A stretch of DNA of 64,000 nucleotides from Eledone cirrhosa (taxonomy: Eukaryota): assembly GCA_964016885.1 (NCBI GenBank), contig OZ024740.1, forward strand, positions 422,406,001 to 422,470,000, given 5' to 3'. Under the pieces are notes generated by a model. That model ran no database searches, was not told where the DNA came from, and worked only from the letters and a program-made list of their open reading frames with translations. The translations under genes and the position numbers were made by a program. Positions 980-40,674 of this stretch are shown piece by piece (position 1 is the stretch's first letter; each line of letters starts with the position of its first letter).

Positions 980-1235
980 AGAACTGACCTCAAAACACTG
1001 AATGCTGTAGAAGAATGACAAAAGAATGCTAAAAGTGGAGAAAAGTTGTGCTGGAAAGAACCTATTTTAACTATGCAAGCATAGAAAATAATCTGGACAG
1101 GAGTAGTAAAAGCTGACCTTAAAACATTGACTTTATAGAGGAGATGACAAAGGAATGCTACATGTGGAGAGAAACTGCGCTAGAGAGAACATATCTTATC
1201 TATGCAATCTTAGAAAAACAGACATAAAATGATGT
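980..1235 (+). mobile_element. Two tandem degenerate RTE 3'-end fragments
   Basis: ctgacct.aaaaca.tga...atgacaaa.gaatgcta...gtggaga...tatgcaa...tagaaaa occurs twice (~985-1090 and ~1112-1234) and ends in aaatgatg. Confidence 0.55.
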
Positions 1236-1749
1236 CTTCTGTATTGTTGAAGACACAATTACTTTCCAGTTTCCGTTTCTTTATTAGAACCTTCTCATAT
1301 TTTCTAATAAAGCCTCTGCAGTTTGCTTGGAATAACAAAGTTCTTAACTCTATAATTTCGTCAGTGTTTCTAGACTTTCACAGTCTCATCATCAGAAGTG
1401 TTGTTGGTTTATTTTTACTGCCTCTTTTATTGTAGGTATATATATATTTTGTGAAGTTTTATGCAGTTTTTCTTATTTTGCCCACATTTCATGGATTCCA
1501 TTTGAGAATTTGAATATTAAATTTGACTGTAAGACTCACATGTCAGAATTTAGGTGTTCATGACGTGTATGGTTCTTGAGTGGCTGGCACTATAAAGCAG
1601 TTGGTAGAAACTGCATATGATGTACACAATGTAAAGTATGGGTTCAAAAGTGATGTAGTGGGATAGCAGGCCAACCAACAGTAGACATAGTACATAGCTG
1701 ATGTGCAAGGATAGTTGGTAGCATGAACATCAGTGAAATGAGCTATTTA

Positions 1750-2800
1750 CAATCCTGGGAAGGCTCCATAGAAGTAGTTGATAGCTTCTGCTACTTGGAT
1801 GACCTAATTATTAGTGAAGGAGGTTGCTAAGAAAGCATAGTAGCTAGGATAAGAACAAGCTGGAGAAAGGTCAGAGAGCTATTACCTCTGTTGACAACAA
1901 AATATTTCTCACTATGAATGAAAAGCCAGCATTATGATGCCTGCATGTGATGTGCAATATTGCAATGTAGAGAGACAGGGGCAGTAAATGCAAAGGATTG
2001 CAAAGGCCAAAAAGAAATGAAGCAAGCATACTTCAATTTTATGGGTATGAATGATAAAACATGGATGAACTGAGAGAAAAAACTGGGTATAAGAGGAATC
2101 AGATGTAGTGTGTAAGAGAGAAGACTGCATTGGTGTGTATGGATGATGATTGTTGGGTGACTGTCAGGAAATCTCTGTGGAAGAAAGCTGCAATAGAGGA
2201 AGACCTGGGCAGAGCTGGTGAGAGCTGATCCCAAATTGTTGAAGCTCATGATGAAGGAATGTAACAAGTGGAGGGAAGTAATGCTACAAAAGACCCATGT
2301 AACACATACAGGCATGGAAAAATGGACATGATGATGATGTACATAGATGCATGTATATACAGAAATAAGCAGACTTTATGATACCAGTATGTGAACTGCA
2401 ATGCTACATGGCAGTGAGACATGGAATTCAACATACAACAGCAGTGAGATATGGGCCTTGACTGTATGATAGAAAGCCTGGAAAGACTAGAAAAAAAAGC
2501 AACTAGCATGCTCTGGTGGGTATGTAATGTTAGTGTGCATAAATAAGGTAGCATAAAAGAGGACTTGGATACTGTATGCAAGAGAGAAGATTGCGATGGT
2601 TTGGTCATGTAATACCTTTGGAAGATGACAGCTGTATAGAAAATTACAGAGAAATCTGATGGGACTCATGGAAGAAGTTAGACCTAGGAAGACATGAGAT
2701 GATTCAGTGAAGTCAGACGTTAGGAAACTGACTCATAACAGATGACAAAGGACCATGAGGATTAGCAACATATAGTACTGAAGAAGACTTACCTATCAAC
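1750..2800 (+). mobile_element. Degenerate RTE LINE 3' fragments (at least two)
   Basis: Decayed EVVDSFCYL / GWRKVRELLPLL / MLHGSETW / LRWFGH motifs; gatgatgat tail at ~2330. Confidence 0.7.
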
Positions 2801-3099
2801 ATAAGAATGTAACCGGACCTATTGTCACAGTTCCACCATTGCTTCTTAGTAACCAATTGAGGATTATAGCTGTTCTAATTATTGCAGTCCCTCCCTCCCT
2901 CCATTGATTCCTATTACACTTGTCGTACACTTCTGACATCTCTCCCACATCACCCCTTTGAATCCCCACCACACCTTTCATACACCTTGACATTATATTG
3001 TCATCTATCCATGACATCTTACCTCCCTATACTCTATCCCTCACATAGGGAGGTAAGGGAAAGTAGTGTGTACTAGATGTATGCGTCAATCTGGGAGGG

Positions 3100-3599
3100 C
3101 GGGTCTTCTGTAATACTGCATAACGCCAGAGATCTCGATCCTGTGTCATCGCCTTTGAGCGGTGCAATTATGCACAGTCAATTTTTATCAACTCCTCCCA
3201 AGTCTTCCTGGGTCATCCTACTCCATAGCTTCCATCAACTTTGAGCACCCTGCACCTTTCTATAGAGCTGTCATCCTTCATATGCATCACATGTCCATAC
3301 CAGTGCAATCTCCTCCCCTGCACACTGCATTTGATCCTTCTTATGCCCAGTTTCTCTCTTAGTTCATTTATACTTTGCCATTCATGTAGATTACTATTAC
3401 ATATCCTTTGAAGCATGCCAGCTTCATTTCTTTCCAATCTTCGCAAGTCATCTGCACACTGTATCCAGATCTCACTACTATGTAACATTGCTATTCAGAT
3501 ACACGCATTATACAATCTGCCCTTCATTTTGAGGGAAAAACCTTTTGTAGCTAACAGTGGTAGCAGCTCCCTCTACTGTTTCCATCCCGTTCTCACTCA
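3100..3599 (-). mobile_element. Old RTE LINE 3' coding fragment whose 5' edge seeds the satellite
   Basis: ORF 3213-3488(-) [12 protein letters not shown]...RRLHWYGHVMHM is homologous to the RTE C-terminus and continues directly into the first satellite unit. Confidence 0.85.
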
Positions 3600-6500
3600 C
3601 CTTTTGTAGCTAGCAGTGGTAGCAGCTCCCTCTACTATTCCCATCCTGTTCTCACCTTTTGTAGCTAGCAGTGGTAGCAGCTCCCTCTACTATTCCCATC
3701 CCGTTCTCACCTTTTGTAGCTAGCAGTGGTAGCAGCTCCCTCTACTATTCCCATCCCGTTCTCACCTTTTGTAGCTAGCAGTGGTAGCAGCTCCCTCTAC
3801 TATTCCCATCCTGTTCTCACCTTTTGTAGCAAGCAGTGGTAGCAGCTCCCTCTACTGTTTCCATCCCGTTCTCACTCACCTTTTGTAGCTAGCAGTGGTA
3901 GCAGCTCCCTCTACTATTCCCATCCCGTTCTCACCTTTTGTAGCTAGCAGTGGTAGCAGCTCCCTCTACTATTCCCATCCCGTTCTCACCTTTTGTAGCT
4001 AGCAGTGGTAGCAGCTCCCTCTACTATTCCCATCCCGTTCTCACCTTTTGTAGCTAGCAGTGGTAGCAGCTCCCTCTACTATTCCCATCCCGTTCTCACC
4101 TTTTGTAGCTAGCAGTGGTAGCAGCTCCCTCTACTATTCCCATCCCGTTCTCACCTTTTGTAGCAAGCAGTGGTAGCAGCTCCCTCTACTGTTTCCATTC
4201 CGTTCTCACTCACCTTTTGTAGCTAGCAGTGGTAGCAGCTCCCTCTACTATTCCCATCCCGTTCTCACCTTTTGTAGCTAGCAGTGGTAGCAGCTCCCTC
4301 TACTGTTTCCATTCCGTTCTCACTCACCTTTTGTAGCTAGCAGTGGTAGGAGCTCCCTCTACTGTTTCCATCCCGTTCTCACCTTTTGTAGCTAGCAGTG
4401 GTAGCAGCTCCCTCTACTGTTTCCATTCCGTTCTCACTCACCTTTTGTAGCTAGCAGTGGTAGCAGCTCCCTCTACTGTTTCCATTCCGTTCTCACTCAC
4501 CTTTTGTAGCTAGCAGTGGTAGCAGCTCCCTCTACTGTTTCCATCCCGTTCTCACCTTTTGTAGCAAGCAGTGGTAGCAGCTCCCTCTACTGTTTCCATC
4601 CCGTTCTCACCTTTTGTAGCAAGCAGTGGTAGCAGCTCCCTCTACTGTTTCCATCCCGTTCTCACCTTTTGTAGCAAGCAGTGGTAGCAGCTCCCTCTAC
4701 TGTTTCCATCCCGTTCTCACCTTTTGTAGCAAGCAGTGGTAGCAGCTCTCTCTACTGTTTCCATCCCGTTCTCACCTTTTGTAGCAAGCAGTGGTAGCAG
4801 CTCCCTCTACTGTTTCCATCCCGTTCTCACCTTTTGTAGCAAGCAGTGGTAGCAGCTCCCTCTACTGTTTCCATCCCGTTCTCACCTTTTGTAGCAAGCA
4901 GTGGTAGCAGCTCCCTCTACTGTTTCCATCCCGTTCTCACCTTTTGTAGCTAGCAGTGGTAGCAGCTCCCTCTACTGTTTCCATTCCGTTCTCACTCACC
5001 TTTTGTAGCAAGCAGTGGTAGCAGCTCCCTCTACTGTTTCCATCCCGTTCTCACCTTTTGTAGCTAGCAGTGGTAGCAGCTCCCTCTACTGTTTCCATTC
5101 CGTTCTCACTCACCTTTTGTAGCAAGCAGTGGTAGCAGCTCCCTCTACTGTTTCCATCCCGTTCTCACCTTTTGTAGCTAGCAGTGGTAGCAGCTCCCTC
5201 TACTGTTTCCATTCCGTTCTCACTCACCTTTTGTAGCAAGCAGTGGTAGCAGCTCCCTCTACTGTTTCCATCCCGTTCTCACCTTTTGTAGCTAGCAGTG
5301 GTAGCAGCTCCCTCTACTGTTTCCATCCCGTTCTCACTCACCTTTTGTAGCTAGCAGTGGTAGCAGCTCCCTCTACTGTTTCCATTCCGTTCTCACTCAC
5401 CTTTTGTAGCTAGCAGTGGTAGCAGCTCCCTCTACTGTTTCCATCCCGTTCTCACCTTTTGTAGCAAGCAGTGGTAGCAGCTCCCTCTACTATTCCCATC
5501 CCGTTCTCACCTTTTGTAGCTAGCAGTGGTAGCAGCTCCCTCTACTATTCCCATCCCGTTCTCACCTTTTGTAGCTAGCAGTGGTAGCAGCTCCCTCTAC
5601 TATTCCCATCCCGTTCTCACCTTTTGTAGCTAGCAGTGGTAGCAGCTCCCTCTACTATTCCCATCCCGTTCTCACCTTTTGTAGCTAGCAGTGGTAGCAG
5701 CTCCCTCTACTATTCCCATCCCGTTCTCACCTTTTGTAGCAAGCAGTGGTAGCAGCTCCCTCTACTGTTTCCATTCCGTTCTCACTCACCTTTTGTAGCT
5801 AGCAGTGGTAGCAGCTCCCTCTACTATTCCCATCCCGTTCTCACCTTTTGTAGCTAGCAGTGGTAGCAGCTCCCTCTACTATTCCCATCCCGTTCTCACC
5901 TTTTGTAGCTAGCAGTGGTAGCAGCTCCCTCTACTATTCCCATCCCGTTCTCACCTTTTGTAGCAAGCAGTGGTAGCAGCTCCCTCTACTGTTTCCATCC
6001 CGTTCTCACCTTTTGTAGCTAGCAGTGGTAGCAGCTCCCTCTACTGTTTCCATCCCGTTCTCACTCACCTTTTGTAGCAAGCAGTGGTAGCAGCTCCCTC
6101 TACTGTTTCCATCCCGTTCTCACCTTTTGTAGCAAGCAGTGGTAGCAGCTCCCTCTACTGTTTCCATCCCGTTCTCACCTTTTGTAGCTAGCAGTGGTAG
6201 CAGCTCCCTCTACTATTCCCATCCCGTTCTCACCTTTTGTAGCAAGCAGTGGTAGCAGCTCCCTCTACTGTTTCCATCCCGTTCTCACCTTTTGTAGCTA
6301 GCAGTGGTAGCAGCTCCCTCTACTGTTTCCATCCCGTTCTCACCTTTTGTAGCAAGCGGTGGTAGTAGATCCCTCTACTGTTTCCATCCCGTTCTCACCT
6401 TTTGTAGCAAGCAGTGGTAGCAGCTCCCTCTACTGTTTCCATCCCGTTCTCACCTTTTGTAGCTAGCAGTGGTAGCAGCTCCCTCTACTGTTTCCATCCC

Positions 6501-9500
6501 GTTCTCACCTTTTGTAGCTAGCAGTGGTAGCAGCTCCCTCTACTGTTTCCATCCCGTTCTCACTCACCTTTTGTAGCTAGCAGTGGTAGCAGCTCCCTCT
6601 ACTGTTTCCATCCCGTTCTCACCTTTTGTAGCAAGCAGTGGTAGCAGCTCCCTCTACTGTTTCCATCCCGTTCTCACCTTTTGTAGCAAGCAGTGGTAGC
6701 AGCTCCCTCTACTGTTTCCATCCCGTTCTCACCTTTTGTAGCTAGCAGTGGTAGCAGCTCCCTCTACTGTTTCCATCCCGTTCTCACCTTTTGTAGCAAG
6801 CAGTGGTAGCAGCTCCCTCTACTGTTTCCATCCCGTTCTCACCTTTTGTAGCAAGCAGTGGTAGCAGCTCCCTCTACTGTTTCCATCCCGTTCTCACCTT
6901 TTGTAGCTAGCAGTGGTAGCAGCTCCCTCTACTGTTTCCATCCCGTTCTCACCTTTTGTAGCAAGCAGTGGTAGCAGCTCCCTCTACTGTTTCCATCCCG
7001 TTCTCACCTTTTGTAGCTAGCAGTGGTAGCAGCTCCCTCTACTGTTTCCATCCCGTCCTCACCTTTTGTAGCAAGCAGTGGTAGCAGCTCCCTCTACTGT
7101 TTCCATCCCGTTCTCACCTTTTGTAGCTAGCAGTGGTAGCAGCTCCCTCTACTGTTTCCATCCCGTTCTCACTCACCTTTTGTAGCTAGCAGTGGTAGCA
7201 GCTCCCTCTACTGTTTCCATCCCGTTCTCACCTTTTGTAGCAAGCAGTGGTAGCAGCTCCCTCTACTGTTTCCATCCCGTTCTCACCTTTTGTAGCTAGC
7301 AGTGGTAGCAGCTCCCTCTACTGTTTCCATCCCGTTCTCACTCACCTTTTGTAGCTAGCAGTGGTAGCAGCTCCCTCTACTGTTTCCATCCCGTTCTCAC
7401 CTTTTGTAGCAAGCAGTGGTAGCAGCTCCCTCTACTGTTTCCATCCCGTTCTCACCTTTTGTAGCTAGCAGTGGTAGCAGCTCCCTCTACTGTTTCCATC
7501 CCGTTCTCACCTTTTGTAGCAAGCAGTGGTAGCAGCTCCCTCTACTGTTTCCATCCCGTTCTCACCTTTTGTAGCTAGCAGTGGTAGCAGCTCCCTCTAC
7601 TGTTTCCATCCCGTTCTCACCTTTTGTAGCTAGCAGTGGTAGCAGCTCCCTCTACTGTTTCCATCCCGTTCTCACCTTTTGTAGCAAGCAGTGGTAGCAG
7701 CTCCCTCTACTGTTTCCATTCCGTTCTCACTCACCTTTTGTAGCTAGCAGTGGTAGCAGCTCCCTCTACTGTTTCCATTCCGTTCTCACCTTTTGTAGCA
7801 AGCAGTGGTAGCAGCTCCCTCTACTGTTTCCATTCCGTTCTCACTCACCTTTTGTAGCTAGCAGTGGTAGCAGCTCCCTCTACTGTTTCCATTCCGTTCT
7901 CACCTTTTGTAGCTAGCAGTGGTAGCAGCTCCCTCTACTGTTTCCATTCCGTTCTCACCTTTTGTAGCTAGCAGTGGTAGCAGCTCCCTCTACTGTTTCC
8001 ATTCCGTTCTCACTCACCTTTTGTAGCTAGCAGTGGTAGCAGCTCCCTCTACTGTTTCCATTCCGTTCTCACCTTTTGTAGCTAGCAGTGGTAGCAGCTC
8101 CCTCTACTGTTTCCATTCCGTTCTCACTCACCTTTTGTAGCTAGCAGTGGTAGCAGCTCCCTCTACTGTTTCCATTCCGTTCTCACTCACCTTTTGTAGC
8201 AAGCAGTGGTAGCAGCTCCCTCTACTGTTTCCATTCCGTTCTCACTCACCTTTTGTAGCTAGCAGTGGTAGGAGCTCCCTCTACTGTTTCCATCCCGTTC
8301 TCACCTTTTGTAGCTAGCAGTGGTAGCAGCTCCCTCTACTGTTTCCATTCCGTTCTCACTCACCTTTTGTAGCTAGCAGTGGTAGCAGCTCCCTCTACTG
8401 TTTCCATTCCGTTCTCACTCACCTTTTGTAGCTAGCAGTGGTAGCAGCTCCCTCTACTGTTTCCATCCCGTTCTCACCTTTTGTAGCAAGCAGTGGTAGC
8501 AGCTCCCTCTACTGTTTCCATCCCGTTCTCACCTTTTGTAGCAAGCAGTGGTAGCAGCTCCCTCTACTGTTTCCATCCCGTTCTCACCTTTTGTAGCAAG
8601 CAGTGGTAGCAGCTCCCTCTACTGTTTCCATCCCGTTCTCACCTTTTGTAGCAAGCAGTGGTAGCAGCTCTCTCTACTGTTTCCATCCCGTTCTCACCTT
8701 TTGTAGCAAGCAGTGGTAGCAGCTCCCTCTACTGTTTCCATCCCGTTCTCACCTTTTGTAGCAAGCAGTGGTAGCAGCTCCCTCTACTGTTTCCATCCCG
8801 TTCTCACCTTTTGTAGCAAGCAGTGGTAGCAGCTCCCTCTACTGTTTCCATCCCGTTCTCACCTTTTGTAGCTAGCAGTGGTAGCAGCTCCCTCTACTGT
8901 TTCCATTCCGTTCTCACTCACCTTTTGTAGCAAGCAGTGGTAGCAGCTCCCTCTACTGTTTCCATCCCGTTCTCACCTTTTGTAGCTAGCAGTGGTAGCA
9001 GCTCCCTCTACTGTTTCCATTCCGTTCTCACTCACCTTTTGTAGCAAGCAGTGGTAGCAGCTCCCTCTACTGTTTCCATCCCGTTCTCACCTTTTGTAGC
9101 TAGCAGTGGTAGCAGCTCCCTCTACTGTTTCCATTCCGTTCTCACTCACCTTTTGTAGCAAGCAGTGGTAGCAGCTCCCTCTACTGTTTCCATCCCGTTC
9201 TCACCTTTTGTAGCTAGCAGTGGTATCAGCTCCCTCTACTGTTTCCATTCCGTTCTCACTCACCTTTTGTAGCAAGCAGTGGTAGCAGCTCCCTCTACTG
9301 TTTCCATCCCGTTCTCACCTTTTGTAGCTAGCAGTGGTAGCAGCTCCCTCTACTGTTTCCATCCCGTTCTCACCTTTTGTAGCTAGCAGTGGTAGCAGCT
9401 CCCTCTACTGTTTCCATCCCGTTCTCACCTTTTGTAGCAAGCAGTGGTAGCAGCTCCCTCTACTGTTTCCATCCCGTTCTCACCTTTTGTAGCAAGCAGT

Positions 9501-12500
9501 GGTAGCAGCTCCCTCTACTGTTTCCATTCCGTTCTCACTCACCTTTTGTAGCTAGCAGTGGTAGCAGCTCCCTCTACTGTTTCCATCCCGTTCTCACCTT
9601 TTGTAGCTAGCAGTGGTAGCAGCTCCCTCTACTGTTTCCATCCCGTTCTCACCTTTTGTAGCTAGCAGTGGTAGCAGCTCCCTCTACTGTTTCCATTCCG
9701 TTCTCACTCACCTTTTGTAGCTAGCAGTGGTAGCAGCTCCCTCTACTGTTTCCATCCCGTTCTCACCTTTTGTAGCTAGCAGTGGTAGCAGCTCCCTCTA
9801 CTATTTCCATCCCGTTCTCACCTTTTGTAGCTAGCAGTGGTAGCAGCTCCCTCTACTGTTTCCATTCCGTTCTCACTCACCTTTTGTAGCTAGCAGTGGT
9901 AGCAGCTCCCTCTACTGTTTCCATCCCGTTCTCACCTTTTGTAGCAAGCAGTGGTAGCAGCTCCCTCTACTGTTTCCATTCCGTTCTCACTCACCTTTTG
10001 TAGCTAGCAGTGGTAGCAGCTCCCTCTATTATTCCCATCCCGTTCTCACCTTTTGTAGCTAACAGTGGTAGCAGCTCCCTCTACTGTTTCCATTCCGTTC
10101 TCACTCACCTTTTGTAGCTAGCAGTGGTAGCAGCTCCCTCTACTGTTTCCATCCCGTTCTCACCTTTTGTAGCAAGCAGTGGTAGCAGCTCCCTCTACTA
10201 TTCCCATCCCGTTCTCACTCACCTTTTGTAGCAAGCAGTGGTAGCAGCTCCCTCTACTATTCCCATCCCGTTCTCACTCACCTTTTGTAGCAAGCAGTGG
10301 TAGCAGCTCCCTCTACTGTTTCCATCCCGTTCTCACCTTTTGTAGCAAGCAGTGGGAGCAGCTCCCTCTACTATTCCCATCCCGTTCTCACTCACCTTTT
10401 GTAGCTAGCAGTGGTAGCAGCTCCCTCTACTATTCCCATCCCGTTCTCACTCACCTTTTGTAGCAAGCAGTGGTAGCAGCTCCCTCTACTATTCCCATCC
10501 CGTTCTCACTCACCTTTTGTAGCAAGCAGTGGTAGCAGCTCCCTCTACTGTTTCCATCCCGTTCTCACCTTTTGTAGCAAGCAGTGGTAGCAGCTCCCTC
10601 TACTATTCCCATCCCGTTCTCACTCACCTTTTGTAGCAAGCAGTGGTAGCAGCTCCCTCTACTGTTTCCATCCCGTTCTCACCTTTTGTAGCTAGCAGTG
10701 GTAGCAGCTCCCTCTACTGTTTCCATTCCGTTCTCACTCACCTCTTGTAGCAAGCAGTGGTAGCAGCTCCCTCTACTGTTTCCATCCCGTTCTCACCTTT
10801 TGTAGCTAGCAGTGGTAGCAGCTCCCTCTACTGTTTCCATCCCGTTCTCACCTTTTGTAGCTAGCAGTGGTAGCAGCTCCCTCTACTGTTTCCATCCCGT
10901 TCTCACCTTTTGTAGCAAGCAGTGGTAGCAGCTCCCTCTACTGTTTCCATCCCGTTCTCACCTTTTGTAGCAAGCAGTGGTAGCAGCTCCCTCTACTGTT
11001 TCCATTCCGTTCTCACTCACCTTTTGTAGCTAGCAGTGGTAGCAGCTCCCTCTACTGTTTCCATCCCGTTCTCACCTTTTGTAGCTAGCAGTGGTAGCAG
11101 CTCCCTCTACTGTTTCCATCCCGTTCTCACCTTTTGTAGCTAGCAGTGGTAGCAGCTCCCTCTACTGTTTCCATTCCGTTCTCACTCACCTTTTGTAGCT
11201 AGCAGTGGTAGCAGCTCCCTCTACTGTTTCCATCCCGTTCTCACCTTTTGTAGCTAGCAGTGGTAGCAGCTCCCTCTACTATTTCCATCCCGTTCTCACC
11301 TTTTGTAGCTAGCAGTGGTAGCAGCTCCCTCTACTGTTTCCATTCCGTTCTCACTCACCTTTTGTAGCTAGCAGTGGTAGCAGCTCCCTCTACTGTTTCC
11401 ATCCCGTTCTCACCTTTTGTAGCAAGCAGTGGTAGCAGCTCCCTCTACTGTTTCCATCCCGTTCTCACCTTTTGTAGCTAGCAGTGGTAGCAGCTCCCTC
11501 TACTGTTTCCATTCCGTTCTCACTCACCTTTTGTAGCTAGCAGTGGTAGCAGCTCCCTCTACTGTTTCCATCCCGTTCTCACCTTTTGTAGCTAGCAGTG
11601 GTAGCAGCTCCCTCTACTGTTTCCATTCCGTTCTCACTCACCTTTTGTAGCTAGCAGTGGTAGCAGCTCCCTCTACTGTTTCCATCCCGTTCTCACCTTT
11701 TGTAGCAAGCAGTGGTAGCAGCTCCCTCTACTGTTTCCATTCCGTTCTCACTCACCTTTTGTAGCTAGCAGTGGTAGCAGCTCCCTCTACTATTCCCATC
11801 CCGTTCTCACCTTTTGTAGCTAACAGTGGTAGCAGCTCCCTCTACTGTTTCCATTCCGTTCTCACTCACCTTTTGTAGCTAGCAGTGGTAGCAGCTCCCT
11901 CTACTGTTTCCATCCCGTTCTCACCTTTTGTAGCAAGCAGTGGTAGCAGCTCCCTCTACTATTCCCATCCCGTTTCACTCACCTTTTGTAGCAAGCAGTG
12001 GTAGCAGCTCCCTCTCCTATTCCCATCCCGTTCTCACTCACCTTTTGTAGCAAGCAGTGGTAGCAGCTCCCTCTACTGTTTCCATCCCGTTCTCACCTTT
12101 TGTAGCAAGCAGTGGGAGCAGCTCCCTCTACTATTCCCATCCCGTTCTCACTCACCTTTTGTAGCTAGCAGTGGTAGCAGCTCCCTCTACTATTCCCATC
12201 CCGTTCTCACTCACCTTTTGTAGCAAGCAGTGGTAGCAGCTCCCTCTACTATTCCCATCCCGTTCTCACTCACCTTTTGTAGCTAGCAGTGGTAGCAGCT
12301 CCCTCTACTATTCCCATCCCGTTCTCACTCACCTTTTGTAGCAAGCAGTGGTAGCAGCTCCCTCTACTATTCCCATCCCGTTCTCACTCACCTTTTGTAG
12401 CAAGCAGTGGTAGCAGCTCCCTCTACTATTCCCATCCCGTTCTCACTCACCTTTTGTAGCAAGCAGTGGTAGCAGCTCCCTCTACTATTCCCATTCCGTT

Positions 12501-13243
12501 CTCACTCACCTTTTGTAGCAAGCAGTGGTAGCAGCTCCCTCTACTATTCCCATCCCGTTCTCACTCATCTTTTGTAGCAAGCAGTGGTAGCAGCTCCCTC
12601 TACTGTTTCCATTCCGTTCTCACTCACCTTTTGTAGCTAGCAGTGGTAGCAGCTCCCTCTACTGTTTCCATTCCGTTCTCACTCACCTTTTGTAGCTAGC
12701 AGTGGTAGCAGCTCCCTCTACTGTTTCCATCCCGTTCTCACTTTTTGTAGCTAGCAGTGGTAGCAGCTCCCTCTACTGTTTCCATTCCGTTCTCACTCAC
12801 CTTTTGTAGCTAGCAGTGGTAGCAGCTCCCTCTACTGTTTCCATCCCGTTCTCACCTTTTGTAGCAAGCAGTGGTAGCAGCTCCCTCTACTGTTTCCATT
12901 CCGTTCTCACTCACCTTTTTTAGCTAGCAGTGGTAGCAGCTCCCTCTACTGTTTCCATTCCGTTCTCACCTTTTGTAGCTAGCAGTGGTAGCAGCTCCCT
13001 CTACTGTTTCCATTCCGTTCTCACTCACCTTTTGTAGCTAGCAGTGTTAGCAGCTCCCTCTACTATTCCCATCCCGTTCTCACCTTTTGTAGCTAGCAGT
13101 GGTAGCAGCTCCCTCTACTGTTTCCATCCCGTTCTCACCTTTTGTAGCTAGCAGTGGTAGCAGCTCCCTCTACTGTTTCCATCCCGTTCTCACCTTTTGT
13201 AGCTAGCAGTGGTAGCAGCTCCCTCTACCGTTTCCATCCCGTT
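3541..13243. repeat. Tandem satellite, 55-bp unit (59 bp with extra ctca), roughly 170 copies, derived from RTE RT coding sequence
   Basis: Unit ccttttgtagctagcagtggtagcagctccctctactgtttccatcccgttctca[ctca]. The reverse complement encodes VRTGWKQ*RELLPLLATK, and the unit aligns to the RTE copy at ~47502-47556. Confidence 0.97.
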
Positions 13244-31137: not shown

Positions 31138-31422
31138 ATATATATGTGTATATATATATGTATATATTTATGTGTATATATATGTATATGTCTATCTATC
31201 TCTTTACGATGGACACTTGTGCTGAGCTCGCTCGCTAAGTTTTGTTTAAATTCATCCGGAAATTGTAAACTGTAAACTTTCATTTTTGTACCATTTTGTA
31301 GAGGGACTGCCAGGTCAAACTTTGATCTGGTCAGTCTCTCAAAATATTCTACGCCTTTAGGCGAAATAGTTAAACAAAAAAAAAATAGTTTTTTTCTTGT
31401 TGAAAAGTTAATAATTTTTAAA

Positions 31423-33241
31423 ATGGCTGAAGCTTCTTCACCAAAATTCGAAGGAGGAAAGGGGAAGATAAACTTACAGCTTCTCCCTGCCACTGTCACA
31501 GTAGCAGATGCCAAAGGCAGAGGTCAGCCAGAGGAAGAATTGTCTTCACCTGTTGACCGACCACTAGATGTAGCCACAACTATACAAGAAACTGAAAACA
31601 ACGACAACAGCAGCAACAATAAAGACAACAAAAACAACAACACAAACATCACAAGTATCCACACACCAAACGAGAAAGACAACAACAAAGATGAAAACAA
31701 CTCAAACGAAGAGAAACAAAACAATACAAACACCAACAACGAAAACAAAATATCTTTTGCACAAACGGCTAAATTATCAGTCACGTATGTGCTGGAAGAT
31801 ATTTCAAAAGCAAAAGAAATGCTGGAAAAAGCCAAGAAATATGTATCTTTTGGCGAAAACGGTTCGTTTTCTATAAATTCACCTCCAGAACTAAAAATAC
31901 AGACGGAATTACGAACTGTCGTATTCCGTACAATTTTAAATAAAACAAAAAAATCAGCACAACCATCTCAAGCTGAAATTCAGTTAGTACTGAAAGAAGC
32001 GATGAGAGACATCACTTTTATACAAAAGGATAAACTCTATGGGAGTTTATCCATATTGATGAAAGACGAATTGGCGGTGAAAAAATACTCTGTGTTGCCA
32101 ATTCGTTCCATACACTACACCTTCTTCCCCACCTACATGGGTAAAAAAACCCAGAGGATATGGATAACCACCATCACCCCAAACATAAACTACTGGTGGT
32201 TACTAACCGGTTTCCTCAATTTAGACGAGGACAACCTCATTTCAATAGGGAAGGCATCCGGCGACGCGTTCAGTGGAACGAGCATCGAAGTTCTGACCCA
32301 AATAAGGCCAGAACGCATCGCCCAAATCCCTGAGCGCGTTATGCTGGATGACCGTACCCACCTCAACATTATTGTGGAGGGTAGGCGTCTCTCCTGTTAC
32401 CTCTGTGGCAATAGAGGTCACCTGAGGGCTGCCTGTCCCCAGCTCACACAGAAAAAAACACTGCTACCAACACCAACCCTACCCAACAACAACAAAAACA
32501 ACCACAACAACAACAAAAACCAACAACACCACCACAACAACAACAACAACAAACACGTGAAAAAATAACAGAATACTGTCCCATCCAATCCCTCCCCACC
32601 CAAAACAAATACAAAAACACACACACCGCAAACACTACCAGAAAACATACCCCTCCCACCCAACAAGGAAGACGAACCCCTTTCGTCGCAAGACGAAAAA
32701 GATCCCTTCCAACAAGTAAAAAGAAAGAAGAGGAGACGCACCACAGACACACGTTAACTTTAACCCTCCCCAAGAGAACACAAACTACACACAAACCACC
32801 CCTCCCTGTCACACAACACTAACTGCTACACAAAAAAAGACCTTACAATATACATACATGAACACAGACAACAAAGAATTACTGAAAACAATTTCAGCAA
32901 ACCCTTCGGTCCAAACTGAAGGGCCTAACTTTATAACTGCTGTGGGACTACCTCATTTAAAAATGATTAAAATCCCAATGAACTTGTACAAAACACTGAA
33001 AATAAATTTCATGGAGGACGTGGCGCCCCCCCCCCCCCCCCCCTGCGCCAAACCAATCAACCGCGTCCTCCTAAAAAATTTCACCACCCCACCCCACCCA
33101 GACACCCACTCAACCACAAACACCCCAACCCCACAACACACTGATGCCCCTTCACTTCCACAAACCACCACCTCACCCAACAACCCATCCCCAACCAGCA
33201 TGGAAATTGAGCGGCCCGTTTCCCGGGACGCAGAGAGGTAA
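31423..33241 (+). pseudogene. L1/Tx1-like ORF1 (gag-like), open to 32568 then disrupted
   Basis: CYLCGNRGHLRAAC zinc knuckle and N-rich tracts. The frame continues after TAA 32566 as QNTVPSNP...DPFQQVKRKKRRR, so the stop is probably premature. Confidence 0.8.
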
Positions 33242-33265
33242 GTGCCTTTTCTCCTTACCACCAAC

Positions 33266-36200
33266 ATGGCTGTGCTAAGAGTAGGGTGTCTAAATGCGCG
33301 TGGCCTGGGCTCATCTTGGAAGCAAGCAATGCTTCTAAATGACCTCAGGTCACAATCTATAAATGTGATGGTTATCTGCGAGGCCCGGATCAGCAACATG
33401 CGGCAGCTAGCCCCCACCTTTGACGACTTTGAGATGCACGCATCTCTCTGTCAGCCCGGAGGTGGGGGTGGGGTTGTCGTTCTGCTGCAAAAACATCTGG
33501 GCCTTGCAACACAGATAGTTCACTTGGACCCAGGGGGTTGACTGGTGGTGCTGGACCATGGCAGTGGTGAAGGTAGAGCCTTTAGGCTGGTAGCCGCATA
33601 TGCCTCTTTTGGGACAGAGCGGCCCGACTTTTTCCAGCGTCTGGAGTCTTTTCTAGGGACGTCCCGTTCCCTGCTTTTAGTGGGGGATTGGAATGGTATC
33701 CTGGATGCACGTTGGGACTATGCAGGGGCATGTCCTGATAGAGAGGGGTGCAACAGCCTCAAGGGGTTACTCGGCCGATTTGACCTGGCCGATAGATTTC
33801 GACTAGATTTTCCGACGGTGCCAACCTGGTCTTGGTCAAATCGCAGCGGATCATCTAGGTCGTACCTAGATAGATTTTTAGTTAGAAATAAGGACAGGGA
33901 CTTTTTAAGTTGTCCAGAAATGCTCATGGTTGGCTATTCAGACCACAAGTTGGGGACCTGCATGGTCAACCTTGATAGAACGCATAGACAGGGCCCCGGT
34001 TACTGGAAGCTCAACTTGTCCTTGCCGGCAAGTAGAGCTTACAGGGATCGGATTAGTACGTTAGTTAAGGAACGGTTGACTGGAGCGATCGTCAACAGCA
34101 GGTGGTGGGTATCTCTAAAGAGAGAGATTAGAGTAGTCTCGATAGAATTTAGTAAGGTTCTAGCTGCGAATAGGAAGGAAAGGGAGCTAATAGATAGAGT
34201 AGAAGAGGCAATTAGAAGCGGCGACGTGGCCAGAGTGCTAGCATCGAGAACGGCTTTGAGCCAGTTTTTCGACGCGAAGCACGAAGGCTGCGTTGTCCGA
34301 AGTAAAATACGTGCTCTAGGGAACGAGGGGACCAAAGCTGTTAGCTGGGCCCGCGTGACAGAGGCCAACAGTGGAACTAAATCCACCATCCGGTCTTTGC
34401 GAGACCTGGATGGACGGGCGATTCTTGAGCCTAAGCAAGGCCTTTCATTCTTGAGGCCTTTCAAAGGCACTTTGCCCGACTGTTCGGGAGGGGCGGGGAG
34501 CCGGTTGGGAATGTGGACTTCGGTCCATACCTCGACGGCCTGCCGCGTCTCTCGGACAGGGAGGCGAAGTCCTGCGAGGAGCCAATTTCGGCCGCTGAGA
34601 TAGAGGACGTGCTGAGCCAATGCGGCAAACGCAAATCCCCGGGTCTCGATGGTCTTCCATACGAATTATATCTAGCTATGCCGGACTTGTTCCCCGATCT
34701 CCTCGAGGTGGTCTACTGCAACTGGCAACAGAACGGGAGAATTCCCTGTACTGTGACCAAGGGCGTAGTCACACTAGTAAGGAAGGACGAGAACAAGGGG
34801 GACGAAATAAGTAACTTCAGGCCCATAACTCTGCTAAATACAGTTACAGATTTTGGCCAAGGTGCTAGCAAAGAGGTTGGTGCTTGTCGTGGGCAACCTG
34901 GTGGGAGATGCGCAGACATGTGCTATCTCGTCCAGGTCCATCCATGACAACCTCATGCGATACATCATAGAGAGGGTTGGGAACGAACCCGGCTTTGGTG
35001 GGGCTCTGATCAACTTGGATCAATCTAAAGCGTTCGATAGGGTTGACCATGGTTACCTGGATGCGGTGCTAGCGGCGGCAGGCTTCGGACCCGTTTTCAG
35101 GGGCTGGATCACTGCTATGCACAGCAGCCGCATCTGCTCTAGGGTCAAGGTGAACGGCTACCTCTTGGAGCCGTTCAAAATCGCCCGGTCCATCCGACAA
35201 GTGTGCCCTCTCTCCTCCCTTCTGTATGTCTTGACTCTCGAGCCACTACTGCGGAAGTTGGAGTTGTTGCAGGGCATCCCTTTGGAACTGGGATTGCGGA
35301 AAGCGGTGTCGGCCTACGCCGATGACGTGACAGTAATGGTGTCGACGGCCTCCGAAATCGGGGCGGTCGGCACCTTACTGGAGGAGTACGAAAGGTTCAC
35401 AGGAGCTAAGCTGAACCGGGACAAGTCGATAGGTTTGCAACTCGGCACGTGGAGGGGCAGACCGATGCCCTCCGATGGCGTCGTCGGACGCTGGACGGAG
35501 GGCCCGGTGAAGTTGGTCTGGTTCGGACCGGACCTCCAGGTGGAGAAGAACTGGGAGGAGGTTACGAACAGGGTGTTTGCACTGACCCAGAAGTGGGCCA
35601 GTTGCAAACTATCCCTGAAAGGTCGGGCGGAGGTGGCGAACACCTATATAGCGTCCGTCATCTACTACCGCCTGACCGTAGTGCCCTGCCCAAGGGAAAC
35701 CCTCGCCAAGATGGAGCGCGCGCTCTTCCAATTCCTTTGGAAGAGGCGGGCTCCTATGGTGAGGAGATCCATCTGCTGTCAACACCCTTCGAAAGGAGGG
35801 CTGGGGATGCCGTGGCTAATGATGCGTAAATACGCATTAAGGCTACGGCACCTCTACGTATTCCTCACCGGTCAACCGGTGTGGGCCTCGTTTGTGAGAC
35901 GAACCTTTCCCAGACTCGTCTCACTGACCGAGCTGCAATCCTGGGTCAAGCAAAGACCGAGAAAACTGGGCGCCTGGCACACTGAGTGTGCCCAGGCGCT
36001 CACCGCCCTCTGGCAGGCGGATCCGGTTATCAGTGGAGACTCCACCGCAACATTCTATAGAGGGCTGGTACGCAGCAGGTGCGACGACGCCCTCGGAGAA
36101 GCCCTAGACATGGAGGAGGACGAACTGGCCAGCCTGTTCGGTAGGACATTCAACCCGGGACCTATGAACAACTTCCAGAAGTCCCTGGCCTGGCAGTGCT

Positions 36201-36672
36201 ACCGAGGGGCTCTACCCGTTCGAGAAAAGCTCTACAGACACGGGCGGCCGGGTAGGGACCCCGCCAAAAAGATCTGTCCCAGATGCATGTGCGACGAGGA
36301 AACCGTTGCACACGCATTGGTACACTGCTCGGGCGTAGCCGATCTGTGGGGCTATGTCGAACAACTGCTGTCAAGGGTGGGACCGATCCGGTTGACCACC
36401 GAGTCTATTGTAATGATCAAGCCGCCTTCCCCCTTCAAAGATGAAGGAGAGGCGGTGTTTCTGTGCGTAATAGCCATGGTGAAAGAAGTTGTATGGTGGA
36501 CGCGTCTGAAAGGACTGAGGTCAGGCACCTTTTTCTCTGGCCAACAACTGGTCCGTTTCTTCTGATATCATTTCGGAAGAAGGATCAGGATGGAGAGAGA
36601 GGTGCTCCACCCCAGTCGTTTTTATGAAAGGTGGGTGAAAGTGGCGAGAATGGCCCGTGTGAATGGGCCTTC
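33266..36672 (+). pseudogene. L1/Tx1-like ORF2 (APE endonuclease, RT, C-terminal zinc finger) with stops and frameshifts
   Basis: CLNARGL, GDWN, SYLDRF, YSDH, WKLN, KSPGLDGLPYELY, FRPITLLN, LDQSKAFDRVDH, AYADD, CPRC...ETVAHALVHC, split over several ORFs. The 3' end is approximate. Confidence 0.9.
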
Positions 36673-37914
36673 TCTTTACATAAGCCTGTAGGTGGAAAAG
36701 AGGAAGGAACGAGGGAGCACCCCCTCTCTGTGCTCCTGAGGAAAAGGGTTGCACACTTTTTTCGGGGGTGTGTGCGACCCCCCAAGGCGCCTCCTCTCTA
36801 TTGAGGATTTTGTTATAAATTTTATTTTTTGTTATATTTTATTTTATTTTTATATATTGTTATTGCCTCCTCCTTATTGAGGACGCCTTTTTGTGTAAAC
36901 TCCCCCCTTTGTACTTGTCCCACTTTTGATGCCCTGGTGGCAAATAAAAGAAACATATGTATATATATATATACATATATATGTACATCCTAAACGGACG
37001 GTAGTCCATTTAGTAATATTGTTGTGGTCGTGTTTTCGTTGGCAATCGTCTGTTTACGACAGTACAGCGCGGCTGTACTTTAATTGAGATAAAACTTATA
37101 TGAGCATGAACAGTAGATCATTACGCATCTTTTGGCTTAAAAATCTAGAAATTTGGTCCAGCGGGAAAAAGTTTATAATCAAAGTTTGCTGATAAATCTT
37201 GTGTTCAAGTGAGTGAGTAGTAAGCGTGACGCTAGGGGAGGTAATCCAGAAATGACGAATTTTTTTCGGCGGAACTCTTGTGATTGTGATTACGTTAGTC
37301 AAATGTAGTCAAATCGCCGAATCCCCTCCTCCTAATTGACTACGTCATTTCTGAACGGCCCTACTTGTGTCAGTGTGAAACATTACTTCACTTTTCACTG
37401 CTAAAATGCTTTTTAAATACTTCGTTAAAAATTTATGTTTATTATCAAAGCTATGTTTTGTACCAATATATCAATAGTTTGCGAAAATATAGGTAAACAT
37501 GAGTTAAATTTTTTTTAATCGCATCGATCGCTTTGTTGCACCGACTGTGACACTGTCTGACTGTCTGTCTGACTGACACCTTTGTCGGACCGACACCTTT
37601 GTTCAAGCGGACAACTTTGTGTCACTGACACCTTTGTTCATGCCGGCATCGCTGCGAAACACTGATGACAACAACCAGACCAAAATTTCACTTCATTCTT
37701 CATTCTTCTTCAAGACCAATCGCCGACCGATCGTATCGGTTGCTCTTCATATATCAGGTATTCAACAGATAGTTTGCACTTCTAGTATTATTAACGGTCA
37801 TGCGATTTTTTGTACCGATAGGTGCGAATAGTGCGCTATATTTTTGTACCGATAGGTGCGAATAGTGTACAATATTTTTTGAGATTTGCATCCACTAATT
37901 TTGCTTAATTAAAA

Positions 37915-38710
37915 ATGATGTTTCGCGGCTTTTTGATCGGCTTATTCATTTTTTCCATGGCACGGAAATGGAGTATTTCCATTTCGAATCAAAACTTTTC
38001 ACTAAAATCGGGCAATTGGACTGATCAAATTCACATTCATGCCAGTTTTTACAAATCCATAATTAGAAATGTGGCGAAATCGAATGACCAGAAGGTATAA
38101 AAATATTAATTCAAATGTATTTACTTATCATACCAACAAAAATACTTAGATATTTTGTATACCTGGGGCCCGTCAGGGCCAGGTAATGTTAATCGCCAAC
38201 ATTGTTATCTGTTGTCCTTTTGTGAAAGTATTGGTGGTTCATGTCGGCTCTAATGATCTGAATCCTCGTTGCACCGTTGGCACTACAAAGCTGTGCAAAG
38301 TAATACAATAATTTTTGCCCAAGTATTTTTTATTAATCATTTATTTGTAAATTAAGGACAAAGTGCCCATTCGAGGCACAAAACGGGAAAAACAGGGGAA
38401 GAGTCTCTTTGCAAGGCTACAGAAAATAGCGGAAAAGCACCACTGTACACCCATTTTCTACAGTGGTGTCATTCCACGTCCACAAAGTGTAATTGAAAAT
38501 AAAAATGACTTGGGCAAGAGAAATTCTCGTTTGGAAAAGTTTAATTACTGCATGAAAGAAATGATTCAAAAATTGAACTTGCCCAATCTTCACAGCATTG
38601 AAAATTGGTCAAAATTTGACAAATCTGACTTCAAACCAGATATGATTCATTTGAACAATGTTGGAAATCTTAAATTGACACAAATTTTTGCCAATGTTTT
38701 TGCCACCTGA
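37915..38710 (+). CDS. Putative spliced SGNH/GDSL hydrolase, exons 37915-38094, 38150-38299, 38357-38710 (~227 aa; start uncertain)
   Basis: Two phase-0 GT-AG introns (gtataa...tacttag, 55 nt; gtaata...attaag, 57 nt) join one frame with KSIIRNV (block I-like, GD missing), CIPGA (II), VHVGSND (III), SGVIPR and DMIHLNNVG (V). AATAAA at 38748. Confidence 0.75.
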
Positions 38711-38881
38711 TCCTTGTTCTATGGCTGACTGACTAATTTTGTGACTTAATAAAATGTCATCATACTAGTAATGCACAATGGTCATTTTTAAATTTAAATT
38801 TTATTAAATAGTTGTTGCTTGCATTGCTTTAAAATAGTAACAAGAATGTACACATACTTTTTAAAAATACATCATTATCAG

Positions 38882-39241
38882 TCAAATGTCACTAAAAGCC
38901 AGGTGGTCGATAACAACTTCTATAAGATTAGTTACATGCTCACACATTGGATCACCTCTCATCAATGGCATTGGGTGTCTGAGATAATCGTGGAGATAAC
39001 TGATGAAGTCACAAATGAAGTGATGGTCTTCCAGTGTGAACAACTCCCTATATCCATTGATATATGTGATGGCTTCCGATTCATAGGTGCATTTTATGAG
39101 GAATTCCATGCATCCGATTTTCAGTGATTCAATGGGCATTTTATCAGAGATGATAAGGTATTTGACCACGTTTTGCTTTGTAAGTAAATTGGAGAGAATC
39201 ACTGCAGTCAAAGTCATTTCTTTGCATGGGTTTTTGTCCAT
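38882..39241 (-). CDS. Unknown 119-aa ORF or terminal exon, convergent with the SGNH gene
   Basis: Protein-like composition, a ttttag acceptor-like site just before the ATG, and minus-strand AATAAA at ~38800. No recognised motif. Confidence 0.4.
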   Translation of the reverse strand: MDKNPCKEMTLTAVILSNLLTKQNVVKYLIISDKMPIESLKIGCMEFLIKCTYESEAITYINGYRELFTLEDHHFICDFISYLHDYLRHPMPLMRGDPMCEHVTNLIEVVIDHLAFSDI

Positions 39242-39514
39242 TCTAAAAAGTTAAAATGATAAAGTATTACTACTATATAACTTACATCTATTGTTGTAAC
39301 ACCATTGAAATGCACAAGTTTCACCAATTCACTATTATGCACTAATCATCTCAAATGCATTCATGATTTACTAGCTTTGTCATTAAGCCAGTTGCCTCAA
39401 CTAGATTGCAATTATACTCAAAAGAACTTTAAAATGTCAATCACTTGTCAGTAATTCACTATGATCATTTAATTATTAGATAGTTGTTGCTTGCATTGCC
39501 CTAAAAAATAGTAG

Positions 39515-40636
39515 ACCAGATAGAAAAATGCGTACAGCAAAAAAGAGTAATATTGTTGGAATATAAACCTTTAAAAATACAGGACAAGAAACTAAAATAA
39601 AACTTTAAAAGAATAGGACAAGAAACTAAAATAAAACTTTAAAAGAATAGGACAAGAAACTAAAATAAAACTTTAAAAGAATAGGACAAGAAACTAAGAT
39701 AAAACTTTAAAAGAATAGGACAAGAAACTAAGATAAAACTTTAAAGAATTGGACAAGAAATAAAAAATTTTACAATAATATTAGTGGCAAAATTTTTTTA
39801 TTCGTTTCCTGTGCTATGCCCCAGTATCTTCTTGATTAGTGCATAATAATTGTCATGCTCTCATTGTGCGTTGCCCCTGAGCGGTTGGGGTTGGTTGGCT
39901 GAGCAGTTCTGCTCCGTCAGAATGACCATTGCAAGAAGAATTGGCCGATGCAGCTGCAGGTCTCCTCCAAGAATGCACTTCTGGTCCCGCAACACCAGAC
40001 GAAGAAGGAGAAGACGACCGGGACAAGATGTCGACTCTGACCACCGACTACGGCACCTCCCTCCCTCTGTCCCGTCATCCCTCCAGTCCTCCTGCTCCCC
40101 CTTCCTGTACCAGAAAGATGTGGCACGCATTCATCTGGACTGCCGGACTTGAACTCAAGGACAAGATGGACAGGTTGGTCAAGATCAAGGATGAGCGGGA
40201 CGACAAGACCGTCCGCTGCTGCTCAAGATTTGTGCTCATGGGCCCATGGGTCCATTCACATTATGCATGACACATGAGGTGTGTCGCCGAATGATGAAAT
40301 AGGGGTATGGTTATGGCCCAATTGGTGTTCAAACCAGGATCAAATGATCCCCCCGTCTGACGACGACCTCTGAATGTGTAACCCAGAGCCTATGAATGTG
40401 GAACTCGATTTTTTACCAATGAAAATTTTGCCACTAATATTATTGTAAAATTTTTTATTTCTTGTCCAATTCTTTAAAGTTTTATCTTAGTTTCTTGTCC
40501 TATTCTTTTAAAGTTTTATCTTAGTTTCTTGTCCTGTTCTTTTAAAGTTTTATTTTAGTTTCTTGTCCTGTATTTTTAAAGGTTTATATTCCAACAATAT
40601 TACTTTTTTTTTGCTGTACGCATTTTTCTATCTGGT
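39515..40636. mobile_element. Foldback-like structure with long inverted arms containing 33-bp tandem subrepeats and a GC-rich interior
   Basis: 39515-~39797 (accagatagaaaaatgcg...tagtggcaaaatttt) is inverted at ~40422-40636. The unit aggacaagaaactaaaataaaactttaaaagaat has about five copies on the left and three on the right. Confidence 0.75.
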
Positions 40637-40641
40637 ATATA

Positions 40642-40674
<33 letters not shown>

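Follow-up and report, generated by a model that had tools for sequence, protein, structure and literature searches.

What is the gene-carrying island that lies between two TA tracts in the 64,000-nucleotide (nt) stretch of Eledone cirrhosa contig OZ024740.1 analyzed here (the window), and how would it have come to lie there? A sequence-only reading had taken positions 36985..40636 for a non-autonomous, cargo-bearing mobile element and had offered Helitron-type and Polinton-type elements as leads. Having compared the island with the rest of the genome, we regard it as nearly certain that it is a deletion derivative of a 12.6-kb Helitron of the same genome. On balance, we favor the view that a 9-kb deletion gave rise to a non-autonomous Helitron that has been copied at least 96 times, likely by the Rep-helicase protein (RepHel) of a relative, working from a TC end to a fold-back stop.

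With the left 2.5 kb as query, the genome returned 729 candidates, and all 40 that were scored match at 93-100%, mostly across the full query, so the parts of the island travel together as had been proposed. The junction left by the deletion has 96 exact matches in the genome, and because of this copy number we rejected a host gene island. The boundaries are shared as well: exact matches number 317 for the perfect 26-nt left end and 812 for a 24-nt right-end motif, counting both arms of the fold-back, and the same patterns reversed, used as controls, gave 0. An A precedes the terminal TC in 29/30 loci whose search pattern left that base free, and a T directly follows the terminal CTGG at 37/37 readable ends among 40 loci, a few of them overlapping, that were retrieved with interior queries. 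In a pooled count, the 5′ A is present in 92/93 and the 3′ T in 78/80 cases, part of the 3′ set having been chosen with T already in the pattern. The element runs from 36988 to 40635 and can be written A/TC...CTGG/T, with slashes at its boundaries. TA does flank it on both sides, as the sequence-only reading had it, but the tracts are its target, and they are not a target-site duplication because many copies have non-TA flanks. Such a duplication is absent from the flanks of the copies, and two empty sites agree on insertion between A and T, one where a family B relative entered an intron of family A (the family of the island and its parent) and one where a short copy entered the parent's Rep. 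Ends of the form TC...CTRR together with insertion at A/T are the canonical Helitron signature (PMC11417382, PMC4778049).

Sister copies hold a segment that is missing from the window; it occurs at 7 places, 4 of them with RepHel DNA, and the longer copies include a parent with both ends (G000:C28:42936072-42948699; 12,628 nt). Its twin at C2:46.81 Mb matches the Pfam models Helitron_like_N (E = 7.7e-24), DUF6570 (E = 1.9e-14), PIF1, UCH, and NADAR, the last as three exons in order, each piece of which alone falls under the curated cut-off. In all, the DUF6570 marker was found at E-values of 1.9e-14 and 1.9e-17, and no Exo_endo_phos match was found in the family A frames or in the intact family C protein. 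To judge from these domains (DUF6570, UCH, and no endonuclease), the parent's RepHel is of the HLE2 type. The island is thus a non-autonomous copy with both ends of a RepHel element, which places it among the Helitrons. The Helitron-type guess was sound in this respect, whereas the strict Helentron variant of it falls because the parent has no endonuclease, and the Polinton lead is not needed. A Polinton/Maverick or terminal-inverted-repeat foldback transposon was ruled out, since one arm is internal, there is no duplication, and the parent encodes RepHel.

Parent positions 1154-10138 (8,985 nt) are lost in the island, and this deletion joins 48 RepHel codons in frame to an esterase, with G-D-S becoming Y-K-S at the junction. 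Further subfamilies, in which the fold-back and ~250 nt at the left end survive, arose by other deletions. The RepHel hallmarks PH(I/V)H, YxxxY, and Walker A are seen in families B and C, and one family B RepHel copy is interrupted by a single internal stop. Behind a hydrophobic leader, the RepHel N-terminus of families A and B contains LLIIGCVELNPGP (L142:1321-1356; family B C13:18.886 Mb, residue ~129), which resembles a 2A ribosome-skipping peptide; no motif of this type was found in the family C RepHel. The closest database RepHel, P0001, is labelled as a Gammaproteobacteria metagenome-assembled genome and lies on a 7-kb contig, likely as host contamination. The features of the island are collected in the table.

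Table. Features of the island and its borders, in window coordinates (LINE, long interspersed nuclear element; ORF, open reading frame; a dot marks features without strand)
Feature	Position	Strand	Basis or remark
TA microsatellite, left half of target, outside element	36955..36987	.	at LINE tail
Non-autonomous Helitron, family A deletion derivative, 3,648 nt, A/TC...CTGG/T	36988..40635	+	copies, ends, shared deletion junction
TC and 10-bp hairpin with GGTA loop; likely copying start	36988..37013	+	317 exact matches
17-nt and 34-nt iterated motifs upstream of RepHel start	37558..37874	.	parent has them too
First 48 codons of RepHel frame, remnant of 8,985-nt internal deletion	37915..38058	+	start identical to parent ORF L142:1107-2078
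3′ part of five-exon NADAR-SGNH gene, fused in frame to RepHel stub	38059..38710	+	introns 38095-38149, 38300-38356
Diverged (75%) second copy of pre-inner-arm sequence; brackets minus ORF	38750..38839	+	direct repeat with 39430-39513
119-codon convergent ORF	38882..39241	-	AATAAA at 38748(+) and 38800(-)
Pre-arm region with TGCC(T/C)T-A-run motif	39430..39515	+	conserved in A, B, C, C′, D/E
Inner arm, six 34-nt units; starts with exact reverse complement of 3′ terminus	39516..39796	+	
Spacer, coding-like composition, no domain match; family-specific sequence (by eye)	39797..40421	.	
Outer arm of four 34-nt units; right terminus reads GCATTTTTC-N-CTGG; likely stop site	40422..40635	+	
TA microsatellite, right half of target, outside element	40636..40674	.	

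The right end of the element is a fold-back with a coding-like interior, as the sequence-only reading had described it. Its arms are 92-97% complementary, the outer arm ends exactly at CTRG, and the inverted repeat measures 140-290 nt across families. In 20/20 copies read through the fold-back interior, the same stretch of the element stands ahead of the inner arm. A solo fold-back miniature inverted-repeat transposable element was ruled out, as all 14 inner-arm matches among 30 loci adjoin element DNA. Going by these surroundings, the fold-back is the element's own right terminus and no separate module. The terminal hairpins that had been proposed hold for the 5′ end; a short 3′ hairpin of note is not present (-1.2 to -2.7 kcal/mol, just a 3-bp stem; -2.3 to -2.7 for the last 60 nt in families A, B, and C). 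The 5′ hairpin occupies 36990-37013 (-10.2 kcal/mol), with one mismatch at 37008 in the window copy, most copies being perfect. Family B shows a compensatory pair in this hairpin, family C has A/TC followed by a longer hairpin in 8/8 copies, and in family D/E the GGTA loop is the same but its stem is unrelated. The TC end is probably the start site of copying. Minimal copies (L226, L241) hold the first 12-13 nt of the left end only, one of them joined nearly straight to the inner arm, and repeated left ends inside one element point to frequent self-nesting in families A and E (L259, L261, L222-L223, L343/L344, L359, L367).

Both ends persist in the sister families. TC plus hairpin and the fold-back are kept, with changed sequence, in families B, C, C′, and D/E, the spacer measures 0.5-0.9 kb across families, and a TGCCTT-A-run stands ahead of the inner arm in every family read. 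The family B RepHel is 86-88% identical to that of A at the DNA level; the family ends in CTAG, its inner arm is altered in step, and six B-specific differences are present in both arms in 3/3 B copies. Family C has 55% protein identity, RepHel-UCH frames of 2,230-2,245 amino acids (aa), CTAG/T in 7/8 copies, and 210-220-nt arms in 7/8; many of its copies (for example G000:C5:5366554-5379368 and kin, L195-L203) are 99% identical, and from its sequences the family has probably been active recently. Family D/E stands at ~45-60% protein identity. Family E was picked by its 5′ hairpin alone and its fold-back was predicted beforehand; 19 loci were read out of 21 matches, with a CTAG end in 13/19 (T next in 13/13), an inner arm in 13/19, and both in 11/19.

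A tree was built with a single representative per family (A, B, C, C′, D, and E) and three of this genome's best PF14214 hits, omitting rows <120 aa and two top-hit loci that had no open frame. The six family representatives form one branch (100/100), far from the three PF14214 hits, and group with unnamed DUF6570+UCH proteins (99/95) in this midpoint-rooted tree that holds no named references. Among 52 metagenome loci with relatives, those >5 kb showed no comparable terminal fold-back, on short contigs with undefined ends. Three of them (L286-L288, ~7010-8300) carry, close behind RepHel, an imperfect inverted repeat of 49 nt whose copies are 1.2 kb apart.

What, then, of the genes that the island carries? 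A compact spliced SGNH hydrolase gene had been claimed. The frame is indeed open and spliced (227 aa, 37915-38094/38150-38299/38357-38710, GT-AG introns of 55 and 57 nt), but it is a RepHel-esterase chimera that has lost the G-D-S, and its exon 1 contains the deletion junction and is not the esterase's own start. Its last exon matches Lipase_GDSL_3 weakly (E = 0.0021, under the curated cut-off). Block I has lost its G-D (YKS for GDS), and G, N, and D-x-x-H motifs are visible by eye; the window product does not hold the block I G-D-S with blocks II, III, and V that marks SGNH membership, whereas the parent has the G-D-S. The parent's passenger gene has five exons, separated by introns of ~55, 215, 55, and 57 nt. 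Of the four parent copies readable throughout, one retains an open NADAR-SGNH frame (335 aa, with G-D-S) and three are frameshifted. The second NADAR intron (~215 nt; L048:2460-2670) contains a small internally repeated insert, and one copy has a family B element inserted at the 5′ end of this intron. Omega over 45 distinct copies is 1.00 for the last SGNH exon (78 nonsynonymous changes including 5 stops, 26 synonymous); for the middle exon it is 0.66, from few sites (30 and 18). Although the chimeric frame is open in 16/20 copies, a set biased by being the best-matching, the omega of 1.00 rules out a functional SGNH gene in the island, and on these substitution counts the esterase fragment is broken, neutrally evolving debris. 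No homologue of the last exon was found at E<=1 among 48 longer candidates, a comparison with the PDB gave nothing meaningful, and a single-sequence fold reached a pLDDT (predicted local distance difference test) score of 47.

The iterated motifs, the convergent ORF (39241-38882) with its back-to-back poly(A) signals, and the direct repeat are all present as described by the sequence-only reading. The convergent ORF has no match in Pfam, the PDB, or 1.84 billion representatives, the last queried with the ORF lacking its first 4 codons; its fold is uninformative (pLDDT 39), and its omega is 1.22. By eye it may resemble the BTB-BACK helices of SPOP-like proteins, an identity that neither Pfam, the PDB, the representatives, nor the fold confirmed. 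In the copies read of families B, C, and E, both the NADAR-SGNH and the minus-ORF cargo are missing, and no diverged NADAR, SGNH, or minus-ORF match was found in any sister-family locus examined. The parent's NADAR-SGNH gene is thus a modest curiosity that sister families dispense with, and the passenger genes, to judge from their sequences, are dead weight in these copies.

How would such an element be copied? The RepHel of a full-length relative would act on the island in trans. By analogy with Helraiser (PMC4778049), it would nick at A/TC, displace the plus strand, form a circle with joined ends, and insert it into AT. The inner arm, displaced first, would pair with the outer arm as the latter unwinds. 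The resulting 140-290-bp stem, whose base is the last nucleotide, would replace the usual 16-20-nt hairpin, and copying would stop there. From this arrangement we lean, if only slightly, toward the fold-back being the terminator of copying. A natural instance bears on the direction: a short copy sits at A/T inside the parent's Rep, and a composite unit bounded by the left end of the outer element and the right end of the inner one occurs at two loci that have different left flanks and lack the remainder of the parent, whereas the reciprocal junction gave 0 exact matches. The composite is present and its reciprocal absent, as predicted if copying starts at TC and stops at whichever right end it meets first. 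Copies truncated on either side are found and do not settle the direction.

Several observations weigh against this account. No intact family A RepHel was found in the 80 scored out of 975 candidates, the longest frames being 1,240 and 1,174 aa against ~2,400. The difference between the arms of one copy (0.020) is barely below that between copies (0.026), which means that a jump does not copy one arm anew from the other each time. Five single copies have a correct CTRG/T end but no full fold-back (L121, L172, one of the 8 of family C, and L367 and L376 of family E); they may be later deletions, or the inner arm may be dispensable. Read-through starting at the opposite end may also account for the two-locus composite, and counts of 0 and 2 are small.

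The fold-back could instead serve second-strand work, with the inner arm as a second right end on the opposite strand, used as a nick or self-priming site from which the single-stranded copy would be made double-stranded, and termination left to the conserved GCATTTTTC-N-CTRG. Read on the minus strand, the inner arm of A, B, C, and D/E does end in CTRG with a T next to it, the conserved TGCCTT-A-run lies just outside it, and copies that lack the inner arm still terminate precisely. The spacer is also inverted in 2/77 loci (L160, C28:42.936 Mb, and L168, C4:29.79 Mb, both NADAR-bearing long-type copies), but such inversions are rare and ordinary recombination between the arms suffices for them. 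Moreover, no solo fold-back with host DNA on both sides was found in the clusters read on C1 0-150 Mb, and the 14 inner-arm matches mentioned above all have element DNA outside. We consider this role unlikely.

Copying might also run the other way, with the fold-back end as origin and the TC-end hairpin as terminator, as the reversed ends of canonical HLE2 elements suggest. Read backwards, the order of terminal repeat, second repeat, and far hairpin is like that of canonical HLE2 (PMC11417382), and the AT target is symmetric. Several copies that lack the TC end keep CTGG/T (L131, L133, L140, L144, L225, L237, L246), but the left-truncated junctions show no common base or hairpin, right-truncated copies exist too (L231, L240, L249, L250, L251), and L226 and L241 retain only their stub of the left end. 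In every family read, the plus-strand ends conform exactly to TC...CTRR, and the composite has retained both left ends but a single right end, with no reciprocal found, all of which makes this direction quite improbable in our view. Least probable, we think, is that the fold-back is a functionless relic of an old reverse-orientation self-insertion, homogenized by gene conversion. Self-insertion is observed in this element and has been proposed for Fusarium Helitrons (PMC5148889). Inverted repeats undergo mutual conversion, and a private change common to three A copies is present in both of their arms. Yet position, last-base register, the 0.5-0.9-kb spacer length, and the pre-arm motif persist at ~50% RepHel identity while arms and spacers have turned over, and no family read has lost the fold-back.

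Around the island, the window holds a LINE at 31276-36950 with endonuclease, reverse transcriptase (34838-36565), and zf-RVT pieces, broken by stops and frameshifts; the TA tract at the tail of this LINE is where the island lies. A 9.7-kb tandem array of 55/57-nt units at 3540-13243 looks by eye like the LINE reverse transcriptase sequence of L143/L159. Elsewhere, near-identical Helitron Rep matches recur every ~100-130 kb on small chromosomes, and this spacing suggests giant tandem units (L071-L098: C20 3.5-5.2 Mb, C27 13-15.5 Mb, C19 35-40 Mb, C16 0.5-0.8 Mb).

The island itself is one decaying derivative, and its interest lies in its ends. Knowledge of how Helitrons stop and make the second strand rests mostly on one reconstructed canonical element, and a clade with intact, near-identical autonomous copies, a long fold-back, and no short 3′ hairpin provides natural donors for direct tests. 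Tools that locate ends by a 3′ hairpin or by repeats of 11-18 nt would overlook or mis-trim these elements. Tentatively, and with rather less than even confidence, we suggest that they could form a third structural class of Helitron. Its HLE2-type, UCH-bearing transposase would act on TC...CTRG ends that carry a 5′ hairpin selected for its structure and a 3′ panhandle of kilobase size, the latter needed either to terminate copying or to make the second strand. The class would still be active, as in family C, and UCH-bearing relatives in other animals would probably belong to it too.

How do these elements compare with known systems? In the literature searched, we found no Helitron with a long 3′ fold-back and no Helitron-borne NADAR; Repbase, Dfam, and subscription journals lay outside the search, as did HELIANO supplements S11 and S17-S19, which could bear on it. 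The available parts of PMC13282606 and PMC13085455 describe no such ends, and NADAR is known in Gypsy and Tx1 elements (PMC12477816). The texim genes of fish Helitrons (PMC4021074) share the trait of a Helitron-carried, multiplied, intron-containing SGNH hydrolase; here, the SGNH part is fused behind NADAR downstream of RepHel and broken in the island. Strict Helentrons have an apurinic/apyrimidinic endonuclease fused to RepHel, and there is none here. HLE1 elements such as Helraiser (PMC4778049) share the 5′ TC, the 3′ CTRR, the A/T target, and the lack of a duplication, but they have a short hairpin ~11 nt before the 3′ end, absent here, where there is a 5′ hairpin instead, and their RepHel lacks DUF6570, which is present here and places ours in the other clade. 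The combination of RepHel, DUF6570, and UCH is shared by HLE2 subgroups c/d of HELIANO and the present parent, whereas the 12-16-nt terminal repeats, 3′ stem-loop, and T/T insertion of canonical HLE2 are not seen here (PMC11417382). The HLE2-reverse elements FoHeli3-5 of Fusarium oxysporum share the 5′ hairpin, the lack of a 3′ hairpin, and inverted repeats, but their repeats are 13-16 nt and their ends TGCCT...CTCCTGT, unlike those here (PMC5148889).

Nearest is the proto-Helentron of Phytophthora infestans (proto-Helentron-Pi / HelenPi572; PMC4067079, PMC11417382), which shares the HLE2-type RepHel with DUF6570 and no endonuclease, a CTAG-type 3′ end, the A/T target with no duplication, a 5′ stem-loop, and one internal inverted repeat far from the 5′ end. 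It has a 5′ TT, ~12-nt repeats, and SET and TIR cargo, compared to a 5′ TC, 140-290-nt repeats 0.5-0.9 kb apart that both lie behind RepHel, and UCH and NADAR-SGNH cargo here. HELIANO reports no element similar to proto-Helentron in 404 species (PMC11417382), and a proto-Helentron-like design, reported so far from Phytophthora alone, is now seen in a 3-Gb animal-type genome. Fitting neither HLE1, the canonical HLE2 structure, nor the strict Helentron, the elements described here are a new structural variant within Helitrons, whose novelty lies in the ends.

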